A stretch of 64,000 bases of DNA, taken from contig CM000154.2 of NCBI GenBank assembly GCA_000004695.1, forward strand, positions 2,496,001-2,560,000. The letters are read 5' to 3'. The position numbers were made by a program, and so were the translations under genes. Below, piece after piece: positions 28,160-54,213 of the stretch. The stretch is from Dictyostelium discoideum (lineage: Eukaryota). The notes under the pieces are model-generated. The model made no database searches. It saw only the letters and a list, made by a program, of their open reading frames with translations, and was not told the origin of the DNA. Position 1 is the stretch's first letter. Each line of letters opens with the position of its first letter.

Positions 28160-30858
28160 ATGGTTGGAAAAAAACAAAAATTATCAAAAAAGATAGCCAA
28201 AAAGTATACACTCCATAGAAAATATTATAGTGATACAGTTAGTGAATTTTCCAGTTTAAATCCATTTCAAAGAACCAAGAAATCCGATAAATATGCAGCG
28301 ATTTCACAGAAAGTTAATGCACAAAATCAAAGAATAAAAGAACTTGAAGAGCAACAAGAACAAGATGAATTAGAACAAGAAATTGGTGGTGATGTTGACA
28401 CACTCTATGAAGTTGGTCCATCATCTTATGACCTTTTAGTTAAATCATCACAAGATAAGTTAAAATTAAGATTAAAACAATTGGAAGAACAAGAAAAATT
28501 AGAAAAGAAATTAGAAAAGAATAATAAAAAAAGATCATTTTCTGATATTAAAGATCAAAATCAAGATGAGGATGAGGATGAAGATGAAGATAATGATATT
28601 GAAGAAGATGTAGAGGATGATGTAAAAGAGGATGTAGAAGAGGATGCAGAAGAGGATGTAGAAGAGGAAGAAGAAGAAGAAGAAGTTGAAGGTGAAGAAG
28701 AGGAAGAAGAGGTTGAAGGAGAAGAAGAGGACGAAGAAGAAGAAGTCGAAGAAGAGGACGAAGAAGAAGAAGTCGAAGGTGAAGAAATAGAAGAAGTTGA
28801 AAATGATTTAAATAGTGATATTGAAGAAAATGAAGAACAAGATTTTACAGATGTTTATGGTAATAAAGATGATAAAGAAGAGGAAGAAGAAGTTGAAACA
28901 AATAAAACATTAGAAAAATTGAAAAAATCAGAATTATTTGAAAATACAAATGATAATGGTATTTATAATATTCATTTTAATAAAGATATTACAAGTAAAG
29001 AAGAAATGAATGAATTATTATTGAAGTCACAAAGTTTGGAATCAATTTCAAAAGAGATTGAAGATATTGGTGTTATTACATCAATAGGTTGTGTTGATTA
29101 TGATAATTTAATTAATGAAAATAAACCTGGAAAATCCAATCAAAAGAAAGTTAAAGAACAAAAAGAGAGTATTTTACCAAATTTAAAAAATACATTTCAT
29201 GATTACGATATAAAGAAGAGATTATATAAACCATGGTTAAAATCTAAAACAAAGAAAGAGAATGAACTATATTTTACAAATCTTCAAAAGAATTTATTCC
29301 CAATTTTCAACGAATATCGTGATTTATTATACACTGAAGAATCAATGAAAAACCATAAGAGTATTTTTAAACTTTATGCATTACATGCCGTCAATCATAT
29401 ATTCAAATCAAAAGATCAATTGAGTGAAGATAATGCATTGATAAATGAATGTAAAAAGTTGAAAAAACCAGAACCAGATCTTAGACACCAAGGTTTCACT
29501 CGTCCAAAAGTTGTAATCATTGTCCCATTCCGTAATACCGCCTTTGAAATCGTTAGATTCATATTAAAACTTGTACCACACGAATTAAAAGATCAAGTTG
29601 AAAATAAAACCAAATTCAATAATGAATACACTCAATTCGATCAAGATCAAGAGATTAATGAAAATAAACCAGATGATTATAAATATATTTTCCGTGATAA
29701 TATTGATGATTGTTTCCGTTTTGGTTTATCATTTAGAAAAGGTGGTGTTAAATTATATTCAACATTTTATCATGCTGATATTATCATTGCCTCACCATTA
29801 GGTCTTCGTTTAGTAATTGGTACTGAAGGTGATTCACAAAGAGATTTCGATTTCTTATCATCTGTTGAAGTTTTAATCATTGATCAAATCGATTCAATTC
29901 AACAACAAAATTGGGATCACATTAATGTTTTATTTGAAAATTTAAATAGAATTCCAACTCAAGATCATAATATTGATTTCTCACGTCTTAGAAATTCTTC
30001 TTTAGAAGGTTTAAGTTCAAATTTACGTCAAACTTTATTATTTTCTTCAAATTTGACACCAGAATTAAATTCAATTTTTAATCAACATTGTAAAAGTAAA
30101 TATTATTAAATTAAATATATTTTATTTAAAAAAAAGATATTAATTTATTTATTTTATTTTTTTAGATATTTCAGGTAAAATTAGAATTAAAAAAATTAAA
30201 AATGGTGAAATTACAAATATTGTACCATCATTAAGACAAACTTTCCATAGACTTTATTTAGATTCAAATGATGATTCTAAAATTAGATTTAACTTTTTAA
30301 TTGATAATGTAATTATAATTTTAATTTTAGATTATTAATAATAATATTAATTTATAAATATGTTAACATTTTATATATATTTTTATTTTTTTATTTTTTT
30401 ATTTAATTATAAAGATTTTACCAAAATTTGTACAACAAGGTGAAAATAGTGGTATTTTATTATATATTTCAAACTTTTTTGAATTTACAATGATTAGAAA
30501 TTATTTTAGAAAAGAAGCCAAATCCTATGTAATTTGCTCAGAATATACAGATCCAAAAGCAGTTACAAGAGCACGTTCACAATTTAAAGAGAGTGCCAAA
30601 ACAATTATGTTATTTACCGAACGTTTCCACTTTTTTAATCGTTATCATATTAGAGGTATTAAACATGTAATCTTTTTCGGGTTACCTCAAAATTCTCATT
30701 TCTATTCAGAAATTTTAAATATGATCACTGAAAATGATGGTTCAATTATTTCTTTATATACTTTAAAAGATAAAATGGCTTTAGAAAGAATTGTTGGTAC
30801 CCAAAGATCTTATAAAATGTTAGAATCTGATAAACCAACTCATTTATTTAGTAATTAA
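28160..30858 (+). CDS. Utp25 / digestive-organ-expansion-factor-like nucleolar protein (DEAD-like fold, DUF1253), ~840 aa, 3 exons: join(28160..30095,30166..30308,30415..30858).
   Basis: A long acidic E/D-rich N-terminal tract (~28560-28900). Then ...DLRHQGFTRPKVVIIVPFRNTAFEIV...GDSQRDFDFLSSVEVLIIDQ.... The C-terminus is ...ICSEYTDPKAVTRARSQF...FFGLPQNSHFYSEIL.... Donors are AAAA|GTAAAT and AAT|GTAATT. Acceptors are TTTTTAG and ATTATAAAG. Phases are consistent. Confidence 0.6.
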
Positions 30859-30969: not shown

Positions 30970-33900
30970 TTATTTATTATTATTTACTAAATTTGAAATT
31001 TGTAAAGTTTTTTCTAAAACTTCATACATTAAAGTTATATTTTCAAATATTAAATCAATATTTTTAGAATCAATTTCATACCAAACTAAATCTTTAATTA
31101 TTGATGGAGTATTTTGATTATCTTTTAAAGAAAGATCAGGAGTAATAACTATTATAGTTTTATCTTGATTGCCTTTTTCATCTTTAAATGATTTTGCATA
31201 TTCAATTTGTAAACAATACTTTTCAATTTCTGTTTTTGTTGTTTTCCTTGTAAATAAAATACACATTAATAATGAATTTTTAATAAATTCTTTTAATGGT
31301 TGAATTGAGTGATATTTTTCATTTTCTTTTTCAATCAATAATTGTTTATAAAATTCTTCTTCACTTGTTTTACCATCATCATAATAAATTGCTTGATTAT
31401 TATTATTATTATAACTATCTTCAATTTGAATTGTAGTTGATGATGAAAAATAATTATTATTTAATTCACTTGAATTAAAATTATTATTTAAAATTGGAAT
31501 ATCATTGTCATCATAATAATTATTATTATTATTATAATTATAATTATTTTGAATAATATTATTTTGATTATTTTGATTATTTTGATTATTATTATTATTT
31601 TCATTTTCATTAATTTCATTTTCATTATCATTTTTAAAATTATATAATTGAATTAAATAATTTTCAAGATATTGATAATTTGGATCAGATGGAATTAATT
31701 TTGATTTTTCTAACTTTTTTTCAATTTTTCTTTTAATTTTCCATTGTTGTTTTAATTTTTCATCATTTTCTAATTTTAATTTCTTTTCAAGTTCAATATT
31801 TTTTTTTCTTTGAATTGAATTTTGTTTTTTTTGTTTCATTAAATTGAATAAACTAAATTGATCATCTTGATCCGAAGGTCTACCAATGATTTCATCTGAA
31901 CTAATTGTTGGAATTGAATTTTCTTTAAATTTATCACAAATGAAATCAAATAAAATTCTATCTGCATTATTAAATAATAAATAACAACCACTGTTTTTAT
32001 CATTTAAATAACATTTATCAAAAAATTCTTTACGTGATAATGATTGAACTGATTTTTCAAAGTTTTGTTGTTGTTGTTGTTGAATAGTTAAAAGTTTTGA
32101 ATCTTGTGTACCATTTAAAATTGAATGAATTAAATTTGAAATTGATGAAACATTTGAAATTACCTCTTTTTCAGACATTTCTTTAAATGTTTTTTTAGTG
32201 GTTTTTGGTATAAATGTAAATAAACCATATAGAATTGGATCGATTTGAACTGATTGTAAAAAGATTGGTATTATAACTTTACCTAATTTCTTTGACATTT
32301 TCAATTCTTTTCTACACCAAAGTGAGTTAATTGAAGTTTCAGAAATAACAAAAACCACAACATCTGAATTGACAACACCTCTAGTGATTTCAGCTCTCCA
32401 ATTACAACCAGCTTGTAGACGATATTCATCCAACCAACAACGTAATGAAAATAAACCAAAGTTTGAACGTAAATTATTTACAAATTCTGAATCTTTATGA
32501 GCATAAGATATGAAAACCTCATTTGTGAATAAAATATTTTGAAGATTTGATTTAATATCAGCAGAACAATATTGTAATGGATTTTTCATAGTTTTATCAG
32601 GTATACTTTGAGCACCATGTTTACAAAGTAATGATGACAATTGATGATTAGTTTGTGATACTGAAATGTGTAATGGAGTTTGACCTTGTACATCCTTTAA
32701 ATTTCTATTACAACCACGTACTAAAAGTATTGTAGCGATTTCATAATTACCAAATCTTGAACAATAATGTAATGGTGTTTCTTTTTGTTTGTTTAATTGA
32801 TCGATTGAATAGATTTTATTAATTAAACAATATTCTAAAATGATTTTAGATTTCAAATGATTGTTATTGAATAATGTTGAATAGTGAATTGGAGATTCCA
32901 ATGTAACTGGGTCAATTAAATTCAATGGGAATTTATGTTCCAACAATTTAAAAACTTTTAAATTACCATATTCACAACAATCTTTTGCAAGTTTAACTGC
33001 ATGAGAATGTTGAAATTTATTTGATTCAATTATTAATTTAATTAATTGGTAATGATAATTTTCATTGTAATTCAATGATCTCAATAAAAAGCTAGCTTTT
33101 AAATATTCATCATAAACTAAAACCCCAATCCTTTTCTTTAAAACTACAATATCAAATTGAGTTAAATCTTGAAAGTTTTCTTTTAAATTCATTAAAAATG
33201 AATTAAATTTAACACCAAATGTTGTACATTTCAATGGGGTTTCAACAACGATTGTTGTATCTTGTGTACATAAAACCAATGGTGATTTCCAATTAAATGA
33301 TTTTTGATCTTGATTTTTTATTAATATTGGTACTGATGAATACTTTTCCCCGATTTGACCTTGACTATTACTACCCCAACCATATAATCTACAATTACCA
33401 TCTGTGCTACTATTTGATTCAATTGCAATTGAATGATTTCCACCACAACTAATAAATGATATAAATTTATTTGAATTACTATCATATGGATCATCGAAAT
33501 TAACTAATTTAATTTCATAATTCTCCTTACTATCACTATTACCTAAACCTAATTGACCTTGATCATTTTTACCCCAACTAAAAACTTGACCTTCGTTTGT
33601 TAATAATACATTAAAATCTTTACCACATGATACCATTAAAACTTTTTTCAAAAAATTTTGATTTATAATTGAAATTGATCTTTGAATTTGATTTTCAATC
33701 ATTAATTTATTATTACCACCACCACCAATACAATTAGTATTTCCATTTTTATAACCTAATTGACCAAATTTATTTAAACCAACAGTATGAATACCTCTTT
33801 TAATCATAACTGAATGTGAACCACCAACTGAACAATAATCAACTTGATAATGGTCTGCCAATTGCTCAACTTTTTGATTTGATTTAATATTACCCCAAAT

Positions 33901-34852
33901 ATAGCATCTATTATCTTCAGTTATCATACATGATAAACCTTTTGATGATTGTTCAAATAATTTAATTGATTTAAAATTATTTGGAAAATCTTTTTCATGA
34001 TATAATGATACATCTTTATTTACAAATTGAAATATATAACCATTATTTTTAATTTTATTATTTCTAAATAAAATAAAATAAAATAATTAATTTTAGTAAA
34101 TTTTAATAATAGTAATAATAATAATAATAAAAATTATTTAAAAAAAACTTACAAATTATCAAATTTTGATTTAGTTTTTATATTTCGATTCACATTATCA
34201 TCATAATGGCCAATATTAAATAAATTAAAATCTTCTTCAATTGGTTTTTCGTTAATTTCTAAATCAATATTCGAAAATAAATTAAAATCAATTTCATCAA
34301 TATCAAAATCATCATCATTATTATTAATGTTTTCTTTATCATCAATTTCATTATCAAAATAAGATGTTGTTGTTGGTGATGTTTTTTGATTCATTGCTAA
34401 TTTTCTATCTGAAATATATGTACTTTTAAATTTAGATTTTTCTTTTTCTTTTTTTTCTTTTTCTTGTCTTTCTTTTTCTTGTTTTTCTTGATTTTCTTTT
34501 TCTTCTTTAGCTTTTTCAGCTAAAACTTGGCTTATTGGTGGCATGTTTTTAAAAACATCACCATCTGCTATTGGTGCACTATCAAGACCAAATAAATCAA
34601 AAAAATCATCATAAGCTTCTTGAATTTCTTGAATTTCTTGAATTTCTTGAATTTCTTGAATTTCTTGAATTTCTTTTATTTCTTCTTCAGGTTCTTGATA
34701 TTCAAATTTAATAATTGTTTCGTCAATAATATTTGAAATTTTATAACCTTGTAAATCATTAATTATTAAATTTTTACCAATACAATCATTAATAAATTTA
34801 TATGACAATATTGGTATACCTAAACTTTTTGATTTTTCCAAAAATAATAATC

Positions 34853-34899
<47 letters not shown>

Positions 34900-35181
34900 G
34901 AAAAATAATAAATTAGATATTACAATAATAATTAAATAATTAAATAATTAAAAAATAACATACGAATTTGATTGAAAATTATAATAATGTTGATCTCTAT
35001 CATATTCATCCAAACCATTACAAAGTATTATATAATTTGTTGAAAATTTTTGAATACAATATTGAACAGTACCACCATTTACTTCAATCTTTTTTAAAAT
35101 TTCATCTTTAATCTTTTTATCTGATGTATCTTTGGTCGGTGAAAAACAAAAAAATTTTAAACTTGAAAATAAACTCGGCAT
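30970..35181 (-). CDS. Multidomain BRCT - acidic linker - RCC1 repeats - ankyrin repeats - TIR domain protein, 1336 aa, 3 exons: complement(join(30970..34063,34153..34851,34964..35181)).
   Basis: Exons 1-2 are BRCT-like (...[26 protein letters not shown]...[17 protein letters not shown]) followed by (EIQ)n. Exon 3 has an RCC1 beta-propeller (CYIWGN..., [28 protein letters not shown]). Ankyrin repeats follow ([27 protein letters not shown]). Then a TIR domain ([18 protein letters not shown]...[23 protein letters not shown]). Junctions TC|GTATGT..AG and TT|GTAAGT..TTTAG preserve phase (2+1). The deduced length matches what I recall for Dictyostelium tirA, which I have not verified. Confidence 0.75.
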
Positions 35182-35957: not shown

Positions 35958-38791
35958 TTAATCTAAATTATAATAAACAATTGCAGTATTACCTTTACCT
36001 TTTACAAAAGTTGATTGACGTTGTTCTTTACCTTTTGGATATTGAGAGAAACTTACAACGAAATCAGTACCATTATTACGAGAATCTCTACTATTGTTAA
36101 AAGTTAAAGGATCACGAAAAACCAAAGGTATGGTTGTACCAGTTAATTTATAAACTTGTTGAACTAAATTTGTACAAACCTCAGAGACCTTTTCAACGAA
36201 ATCACAGCCAAGATCAATGTAAAGATCACGAATTGGTTGTTTGAAATGAATTGCCAAGAAGGTATCTTTTTTATTACTAGTGGAAAGAGCGACGATTGAG
36301 TGAAGTTTAAGACCCACCTTTTTTTGAGTATACTTTTTAGTATCGTATTTGTAGATATGTTGATCGGTGATAATGAGTGATCTTAATTGAGATTTACCAC
36401 GTTTATTAATTTTAATTACATTATCAGCGAAAAGGATCTCTTTATCGCCACCTTTTTGAAACATTGCTTGAACCGATTCAGAGAATTGTGATTTCTTTGG
36501 ATTACTATCATCAGATAGATAATCAGCTTGGAATTTTCTACGACAATCCCATTCTTTCTTTCTAGAATAACCCATACCAAACAAATCCAATGCTAATATC
36601 TTTTGACGAACCAATGAACGTGCTTCCATTGATAGCGAGGTGACTTTAACCTTTGCCCACCAAATAATGTGGATCGATTGCATGAGTGAATCAATTGGGG
36701 TTCTACGTAACCAAAGTGTTGGCATGATGTGACCCTTGTTATAATGTGGCCCTACAGACCAGGGTTTTAACTTTTTAATATATGTCAAAACTTTATAACG
36801 TAAATAATAAGTTTGAATTAAATTTGCACTATTCTTTCTTTTGATTTGTTTTTGAATCTCCTCTTTCTCCTCTCTTAAACGTTGTAACTCTTGTTTGTAC
36901 CATTTACGTACCTTATAGCCTCTCCATACTCTTTGGATGGTGATCACTATGGATGGTAATATCTTTTGACGTAATTCTTCGAAATGGAATAATGTAGATG
37001 CAGATTTAATAAATAATTTCTTCTTACCAAATTGACATTCACTAGTACTATTTTGAATAGCACTTGCAGCACGAACAATTGCCATTACACCATCCTTTGG
37101 TGTACCATTCCAAAATGGCCAAGTTTCTTTTGAAATCATTTTATATCTACCAAGGAAACGAGTGTAATGCTGTTTATGACAATAGCCTGCTTTACGAACA
37201 CGAATGGTTTCCAACATATTTAAATATCTAACTTGGTGTCTAACAGCCTCATAATCGAAATGATTGGAACGTTTATCTTCATTAGATTTTATACAACGAA
37301 TATAATGTGGTTGACATGTATTCAATTTACCAATTAAATCATTGATTGCATTTTTAAACTGTGTTGCTGCAGTGATTGGTATTTTCTTTACACCCAAGCT
37401 ATTCTTTTGGAAATCTTTATTAAATAATGAAAGAATGAATTTATCTTTACTACTCTCCATTGTGAATATTAAATCTTGATATAATGGATCCTTATTCTTG
37501 TAAATAAAACTATCCAAATTATAAGTCACAGGTGATGCATAATGTTTCAATGTAAAACTTTGACTTTCAATTGATAAATTATTTGATGTTTCAAAAGACT
37601 CGAAATGTTTATTCTTTGAAAAGAATTGATTAAACTTTTGAATCAATAACTCTGGTGTAGATTGACCAATCAAACATGCCTCTTCCAAAAGTTTCAATAA
37701 ACCAACTGGTTGTCCTTCAATTAAATCAATAATTGGTGTATTATCGAAATAGTTATCAATAGTTTTCCATTCAATTCCTTCTTTTAAATATTCTTCTTGC
37801 TCTTGACGTAATACTAAATTTATAAAAAGTTGTTGTAATTTTTCATTTGAATAATTTATAATAAATTGTTCAAAACTATTATTTTCAAATATTTCAAATC
37901 CATAAATATCTAAAATACCAATTGTTGATTCAATAATATAATTGCTACCATTATTACTTTTTGAACTTATTGTTGAATTGATTTTATCAATAATTGATGT
38001 GAATAATCTATCATATAAAACTTTTGAAAATGCATCACGAGTTTCTTTAGCTTGAGTTTGATTTAATAATACTTTAATACTTGATTGTCTTTTACCTGCA
38101 CCCAATGTCAATGAACGTGAAATTAATGATTTCTCTAAACTATCCTCTGAGCATTGTAATAATTGTGAAACTTTCTTTAAAGTTTCAGGTGTTGAGATAT
38201 AGACTGCGTCCACATTTGATTTTTCAACATCATTTGAAAATTCGATATTACCAATTAACAATATTGCTCCCAACACTCTCCATATGGATTCCATCTCTTG
38301 TTCTGTCCATGCTAATTGTTTTAGCGATTCTAAAACCTTTTGAAAATCTTTTGAATCGTTAATAGATGAAATTGAGAAACACATTGAATCTTTTAAATAT
38401 TTATATTGAGTTGGGTCATTTGATAATCCCAATTTACTGGTTATTCTTTTATCAGTTAGAAATTGATAAAATACATGAAAACTTCTTTCACCAATTGCTC
38501 TACTATGAACTCTTGATTTCTCCAATAGAAATTGTGATATCTTTCCAGAGATTGGCGAACCTTTACCATCAAACTCAATCTCTATAAATTTACCAAATCT
38601 ACTTGAATTATCATTTCTTAATGTTTTAGCGTTACCAAATGATTCCAAAACAATATTTGATTCAATTATTAATCTCATTATACCTTGAATATTTTCTAAA
38701 TTACCACTACAAACTTTTGAAATATAATTTAAAAATATTTTTGATGCTTCAGTTTTACCTATTTATACATATTAAAAAATTAATAAATTAT

Positions 38792-54131: not shown

Positions 54132-54213
54132 TGTAAGCTAAGGGATTCGAACCCTTGTATCAATGATATTGCAGCCTTAATGCAACCCCTTAGACCAGCT
54201 CGGGCAAGCTTAC
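54132..54213 (-). tRNA. tRNA-Leu (anticodon AAG), 82 nt, no intron
   Basis: On the minus strand: GTAAGCT TG CCC-GAGCTGGTCTAA-GGG G TTGCA-TTAAGGC-TGCAA TATCATTGATAC AAGGG-TTCGAAT-CCCTT AGCTTAC A. The 7-bp acceptor stem pairs perfectly. The D-stem is 3 bp with a large loop, and the variable arm is long (a type II tRNA). U33 and G37 are present. The A-box (TGGTCTAAGG) and B-box (GGTTCGAATCC) are intact. Confidence 0.75.

Follow-up and report, generated by a model that had tools for sequence, protein, structure and literature searches.

We analyzed a 64,000-nucleotide stretch of the Dictyostelium discoideum genome (GenBank assembly GCA_000004695.1, contig CM000154.2, positions 2,496,001 to 2,560,000 of the forward strand; referred to here as the window) and, within it, a minus-strand gene at positions 30,970 to 35,181. 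This locus is, almost beyond doubt, tirA (DDB_G0289237, UniProt Q54HT1), a single three-exon gene encoding a cytosolic protein of 1336 amino acids (aa), TirA. The explanation that we favor overall, with a probability of roughly 0.6, is that TirA signals enzymatically: its TIR domain carries a glutamate (Glu892) in the column of the catalytic residue of known TIR enzymes and would act through cyclic ADP-ribose (cADPR). In amoebozoan immunity, tirA is the founding case of a TIR protein. Cells that have lost it fail to grow on Klebsiella, are susceptible to Legionella and form contaminated fruiting bodies, and their sentinel cells show weaker bacterial killing, fewer foci of reactive oxygen species (ROS) and fewer extracellular DNA traps (PMC4773522, PMC5758549, PMC4291096).

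The tirA gene was already known, and the sequence-only reading of this locus, which linked it to TirA by its deduced length of 1336 aa, is an accurate re-identification: the length, the TIR coordinates, the position of the glutamate and the construct sequence recorded for Q54HT1 all match. These records come from a 2026 screen in which 154 glutamate-bearing eukaryotic TIR domains were overexpressed in Escherichia coli and the lysates were examined by liquid chromatography-mass spectrometry for three cyclic ADP-ribose isomers (bioRxiv 10.64898/2026.04.20.719644). Table S4 of that study lists Q54HT1_1 with a protein length of 1336, a TIR domain at 820-956 and catalytic residue 892. After its added methionine, the 137-aa Q54HT1_1 construct is identical at 137 of 137 positions to residues 820-956 of the window protein; outside those residues the identity to Q54HT1 rests on the agreement of length and coordinates. 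The name tirA is assigned to DDB_G0289237 (PMC4291096). In row 130 of Table S4 the organism column reads D. purpureum for Q54HT1_1 and in Table S3 of the same study it reads D. discoideum; the former label looks like a slip, and it bears on which amoeba TIR domain was active in the screen (F1A3W2_1 was, Q54HT1_1 was not scored so).

The glutamate column and conservation of the TIR domain

In a phmmer search against solved structures the best matches of the TirA TIR domain were AbTir entries (7uwg and 8g83, E ~3e-6), followed by other bacterial TIRs and by plant RPV1, and the alignments pair the glutamate of the TirA motif WCRKEL with the glutamate of WTNYEL in AbTir and of WCLDEL in RPV1. We also aligned 12 TIR domains, namely three TirA-family domains together with AbTIR, SARM1, BdTIR, TLR4, TLR2, a Thoeris ThsB and three other tested TIRs. 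Glu892 occupies the sole invariant column of this alignment, and the substitutions used as inactive controls, SARM1 E642Q and BdTIR E127Q, map to that same column. The structural criterion applied in the screen (TM-align, C-alpha within 3 A of ThsB E85) returns GLU / yes for Q54HT1_1 (bioRxiv 10.64898/2026.04.20.719644), and the PADLOC models SAVED-TIR, Ago-TIR, ThsB and TIR-NLR match the TirA domain with E-values of 1e-8 to 1e-4. The earlier suggestion that the WCRKEL glutamate sits at the catalytic position was therefore borne out, since it shares its column with SARM1 E642, BdTIR E127 and the corresponding residues of AbTir and RPV1, and a misplacement was not seen. Taken together, these comparisons lean towards assigning the TirA TIR domain to the enzymatic class typified by bacterial and plant TIRs, with a putative active site around Glu892 that would be intact and strongly conserved.

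In AbTir and other bacterial TIR_2 NADases (7uwg, 8g83, 7uxr), the motifs FISxAxxD and WxxxEL align with TirA, as does the catalytic glutamate, but identity is only about 25%, and these NADases are short and carry either a coiled coil or no partner domains. The product of AbTir is 2'cADPR, whereas that of the amoeba ortholog from D. purpureum is canonical cADPR. SARM1 and the plant TIR-NLR and TIR-only proteins (BdTIR, RPV1/RUN1) have the glutamate in the helix C column and are, like TirA, regulated multi-domain TIR proteins; unlike them, TirA has no ARM/SAM, NB-ARC or LRR module among its Pfam matches at E-values up to 1, and its match to SARM1 is weak (E 0.5).

We identified orthologs by an exhaustive phmmer search with the last 142 residues of TirA against 1.84 billion representative sequences, which returned three proteins only, all TirA orthologs with the same order of BRCT, RCC1, ankyrin (Ank), TIR and C-terminal extension. 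These are P0001 (NCBI ACTFIW_008029, 1315 aa), P0002 (D. purpureum F1A3W2, DICPUDRAFT_159346) and P0121 (1241 aa). P0001 is the nearest relative, with 90% identity by BLASTP and 96% in the multiple alignment and with indels in repeats. It is labelled D. discoideum, but its TIR domain differs from that of the window at two residues, whereas the Q54HT1 construct matches exactly; the probable source of P0001 is a divergent isolate or else a sibling species. Conservation of the D. discoideum protein peaks in the TIR domain (72% identity to P0002 and 54% to P0121), ahead of the BRCT domain (51% and 31%), the last 110 residues (50% and 34%) and the acidic linker (17% and 12%), and two segments, [20 protein letters not shown] and [10 protein letters not shown], do not vary among the orthologs. 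A similarity search with the TIR domain alone gave no scored match despite the near-identical TIR domains of P0001 and P0002, apparently a limitation of the word index. A metagenome scan built from the alignment of four orthologs ran on the generic RCC1 motif and returned RCC1 proteins only, many of them from gut or environmental samples, and no TirA relatives.

Proposed enzymatic signalling and its alternatives

The mechanism that we propose, to which we give slightly better than even chances, is as follows. A bacterial cue would cause the coiled coil or the modules outside the TIR domain to bring TIR domains together in full-length TirA; the activated TIR domain, probably through self-association, would cleave nicotinamide adenine dinucleotide (NAD+) or cyclize it to cADPR; and cADPR could then serve as a second messenger upstream of the response that comprises NADPH oxidase (NOX), ROS and DNA traps. 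The non-TIR modules would thus drive or gate activation. Two links in this chain, one between TIR activation and cADPR in D. discoideum and the other between cADPR and ROS, are inferred. Evidence for the chemistry comes from D. purpureum, the amoebozoan example named in the text of the screen, whose F1A3W2_1 domain (residues 769-907, Glu841, identical to the TIR domain of P0002) was scored active with cADPR as the product (bioRxiv 10.64898/2026.04.20.719644). The full-length F1A3W2 shares the whole TirA layout.

Several observations weigh against this explanation. In the same screen the D. discoideum domain (820-956) has a blank "Active" field and no cADPR isomer recorded, and for the D. purpureum domain the table has no entry under NAD+ depletion or ThsE activation (bioRxiv 10.64898/2026.04.20.719644). 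The only TirA assay on record used the isolated TIR domain and not full-length TirA. The link of TirA to NOX and ROS is genetic only, and the roles given here to the BRCT, RCC1 and ankyrin modules are suggested by the general functions of these domains. To our knowledge, no cADPR receptor or effector has been described in Dictyostelium.

TIR enzymes generally need self-association. Mutant E162A of D. discoideum TirC recovered its activity only in the presence of a crowding agent, and the TIR domains of TirB, TirC and TirD show weaker predicted dimerization with that of TirA (PMC13142454). We infer that the TirA orthogroup has catalytic capacity, and we regard failure of expression, folding or assembly as a more likely source of the D. 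discoideum negative than a dead active site. Activity splits between two constructs that are 76% identical (86% over the first 90 residues) and differ at only 34 alignment positions, which lie mostly on the C-terminal side and include no motif residue. The claim of the sequence-only reading that TirA is an active TIR enzyme rather than an adaptor thus stands in part: the glutamate is in the catalytic column and an ortholog makes cADPR, but the D. discoideum domain itself was not scored active. Nor is the enzyme hypothesis new any more, having already been put to the test in 2026 with this split result.

It seems possible, although we consider it unlikely, that TirA is instead an adaptor or scaffold, with a TIR domain that acts by protein-protein contacts alongside BRCT, RCC1 and ankyrin modules, a glutamate that is structural or a relic, and NOX and ROS signalling that proceeds without NAD+ chemistry. 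Three of the four recognized TirA modules are classical interaction domains. The lack of any detectable cyclic ADP-ribose isomer from the D. discoideum domain agrees with such a role, as does the inactivity of most glutamate-bearing eukaryotic TIRs in the screen, where only 12 of 61 animal and 4 of 29 protist domains were active (bioRxiv 10.64898/2026.04.20.719644); D. discoideum TirD, moreover, oligomerizes and is toxic whether or not its putative catalytic glutamate is intact (PMC13142454). However, the D. purpureum domain is active with all of the same motif residues, and conservation within TirA is highest precisely in the TIR domain, WCRKEL included. A negative for an isolated domain expressed in E. 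coli argues only weakly for an adaptor, because enzymatic TIRs usually need assembly, as the rescue of TirC E162A illustrates (PMC13142454).

An executioner role resembling that of SARM1 or TirC, in which triggered TirA would deplete NAD+ and kill or disable the infected cell without making a signal, appears improbable. The closest solved relatives of the domain include the NAD+ hydrolase AbTir, and TirC, an amoeba paralog, is an enzyme that potently depletes NAD+ and lyses cells when truncated (PMC13142454). The phenotype points the other way, since cells without tirA show defects in bacterial feeding and killing, in ROS and in traps, which speaks for a positive signalling role. Additionally, the active D. 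purpureum domain is listed for cADPR only, its NAD+ depletion entry being blank (bioRxiv 10.64898/2026.04.20.719644), and the D. discoideum domain was expressed in E. coli, the table columns consulted carrying no toxicity measure. Enzymatic signalling through cADPR remains the explanation that we prefer.

Domain architecture and the C-terminal extension

The order of parts in TirA is BRCT domain, acidic linker, RCC1 repeats, ankyrin repeats, TIR domain and a conserved C-terminal extension with a coiled coil and a poly-Asn insert (Table 1). All four domain types named from the sequence alone exceed their Pfam cut-offs, and the failure of the BRCT or RCC1 call that might have been feared did not occur. 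The BRCT domain is the weakest call, marginal in D. discoideum, yet the profile evidence suggests that it holds: PF00533 matches residues 3-97 with 22.6 bits in the full protein and 27.3 bits in the N-terminus alone (cut-off 21.3), P0002 reaches 33 bits, and P0121 reaches 27.6 bits for BRCT_2 (cut-off 27.3). When a profile of three N-termini was compared with PDB, the best match, and the sole hit of BRCT type, was the DNA damage response protein Mdb1 of S. pombe (E 0.02). The acidic linker carries a 9-bp tandem repeat (34617-34684, minus strand, 7.6 copies, 96% matches) that encodes (EIQ)n. This tract is polymorphic in length, with fewer copies in P0001.

The RCC1 repeats score 64.5 bits with PF00415 (cut-off 21.7) and 58.3 bits with PF13540 (cut-off 22), and PDB matches of the region include UVR8, HERC2 and RPGR. 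The propeller that had been proposed is thus supported at the level of repeats; for a complete seven-blade RLD the whole-domain model PF25390 gives 98.7 bits, under its cut-off of 150, and covers profile positions 154-346 of 363, or about four blades. Within the 345-residue RCC1 region we recognized by eye four to five clear blades as well as degenerate ones, and the length of the region makes a full seven-blade propeller plausible. PDB matches of the ankyrin region include ankyrin and DARPins. The TIR domain is best described by TIR_2 (PF13676; residues 822-917, 77.4 bits, cut-off 28, E 1.7e-21), with weaker matches to TIR (PF01582; 37.2 bits, cut-off 21.3) and to the Pfam model ThsB_TIR. The sequence-only reading had taken the TIR domain to be the C-terminal 150 aa of the protein; this proved wrong, as about 380 conserved residues lie C-terminal to it.

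This extension has no match to a known family in Pfam, PADLOC or a PDB profile search. By eye, its part A can be read as strand A, helix A and strand B, and its part B as helix B followed by strand C, helix C, strand D, helix D, strand E and helix E. A global hhalign comparison of the TIR domain with the C-terminus, using profiles of three sequences, gave no signal. After deletion of the insert, the profile of three orthologs was collinear with that of the 12 TIRs along 120 columns, with a score of 24.5 and a P-value of 0.0035, at a probability of only 9%. None of 200 column shuffles reached that score (mean 11.5, standard deviation 2.0, maximum 21.3); shuffling also destroys generic alpha/beta periodicity, and therefore the test supports a flavodoxin-like fold more than a TIR fold specifically. 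An AlphaFold2 (AF2) model of residues 985-1336 from four sequences was poor overall, with a predicted local distance difference test score (pLDDT) of 47.6, and reached 53-77 for residues 1234-1304, where the expected order of strands and helices was present. Modelling of residues 800-1336 from a three-sequence alignment was uninformative (mean pLDDT 34.6), as the canonical TIR domain itself came out unfolded. A Foldseek search with the extension model found nothing significant, its top non-significant matches being CheY receiver domains and the bacterial PdTIR.

We put the chances of a TIR-like fold in the extension, as judged from these profiles and models, at roughly even. In the hhalign register the column equivalent to the catalytic glutamate holds Gln in the D. 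discoideum protein, against Glu in both other orthologs, and in an alternative register, in which YC of the extension pairs with WC of the TIR domain, it holds Ile in all three. With Gln or Ile at this position, a second domain, if there is one, would probably lack catalytic activity in D. discoideum. It is tempting, if rather speculative, to regard TirA as a tandem-TIR protein in which the orthogroup-specific extension would supply a second TIR-like domain of catalytically degenerate type, with the coiled coil and poly-Asn insert at the site of the BB loop, that pairs with the catalytic TIR domain or gates it. Such a layout, if real, could explain the inactivity of the isolated D. discoideum domain in E. 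coli and would parallel TirE. The conserved extension may be needed for activity, while we place a regulatory role for it below even odds. The TIR-like reading of the extension is possibly new, and the evidence for it is weak.

TirE (DDB_G0278125) of D. discoideum is reported to combine RCC1 repeats with a tandem pair of diverged TIR domains missed by Pfam (PMC13142454). It shares with TirA the combination of RCC1 and TIR and would also share the tandem layout if the extension is TIR-like. The two differ in that the first TIR domain of TirA is canonical for Pfam, whereas those of TirE escape it (PMC13142454).

Gene model and genomic neighborhood

The region is very AT-rich (GC 0.11-0.30) and contains coding tracts of poly-Asn and poly-Gln typical of Dictyostelium. 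Splicing of three minus-strand exons (Table 1) yields a coding sequence of 4011 nt with a single terminal stop codon and 1336 aa. The two introns proposed from the letters alone, both of phase 2+1 with junctions at 34063|34153 and 34851|34964, have canonical GT..AG signals exactly at those positions. As had also been stated, the raw list of open reading frames misses them and gives only three collinear fragments of 77, 230 and 985 aa.

Intron 1 has an alternative in-frame acceptor, an AG at 34826-34825 (junction 34825|34824), whose use would drop 9 aa from the BRCT domain; the gene model of P0001 lacks exactly those nine residues. The upstream acceptor keeps the segment LLFLEKSKS, which resembles NYEKYKS and NFEKAQS in the two more distant orthologs. 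We prefer this acceptor because the EKxKS segment is conserved in those two orthologs, is part of the BRCT motif and yields the published length of 1336. As far as gene models can tell, we rejected the possibility that the BRCT exons form a separate upstream gene, since independent models in three other genomes all place BRCT, RCC1, Ank and TIR in one protein.

Table 1. Features of tirA and its product in the window (all on the minus strand).
Feature	Residues	Window positions	Strand	Remarks
Exon 1		34964..35181	-	218 nt; ATG 35181-35179; donor GTATGT starts at 34963
Intron 1		34852..34963	-	112 nt; GTATGT..TAG; codon split 2+1
Exon 2		34153..34851	-	699 nt
Intron 2		34064..34152	-	89 nt; GTAAGT..TAG; codon split 2+1; P0001 protein reads through same junction
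Exon 3		30970..34063	-	3094 nt; stop codon 30972-30970
BRCT domain	3-102	34764..35175	-	Pfam PF00533; intron 1 inside span
Acidic low-complexity linker	111-305	34155..34739	-	Least conserved part of protein
Wider candidate propeller region	306-650	33031-34154	-	345 residues
RCC1 repeats	350-555	33316..33933	-	Pfam match; PF00415, PF13540, PF25390
Ankyrin repeats	668-772	32665..32979	-	Ank_2 53.9, Ank 40.3, Ank_4 38.1 bits, above cut-off
TIR domain	820-956	32113..32523	-	Pfam TIR_2; AbTir relatives; published construct
Glu892 codon	892	32305..32307	-	Putative catalytic glutamate, in WCRKEL (residues 888-893, 32302-32319)
Extension part A	997-1045	31846..31992	-	Possible second TIR-like fold: strand A, helix A, strand B (hhalign, low-confidence AF2)
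Predicted coiled-coil helix	1044-1092	31705..31851	-	AF2 pLDDT ~80; K/E-rich heptad-like sequence kept in orthologs
Poly-Asn low-complexity insert	1115-1195	31396..31638	-	Disordered in AF2 model
Extension part B	1226-1336	30973..31305	-	Possible second TIR-like fold: helix B to helix E

Adjacent to tirA lies a UTP25 homologue on the plus strand (28160-30109 and 30490-30858, presumably with an intron between), which has an NTPase-like domain, a Utp25_C domain and a long Glu/Asp-rich repeat near its N-terminus. The two genes are convergent, with 111 bp between their stop codons. Upstream of tirA, a myosin of the class I type is encoded on the minus strand (35958-38678 and beyond), with a motor domain, an IQ motif and a TH1 tail; its open reading frame starts inside the motor domain, and therefore there must be further 5' exons above 38678. 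The window also contains a single tRNA-Leu gene with anticodon AAG (54132-54213, minus strand).

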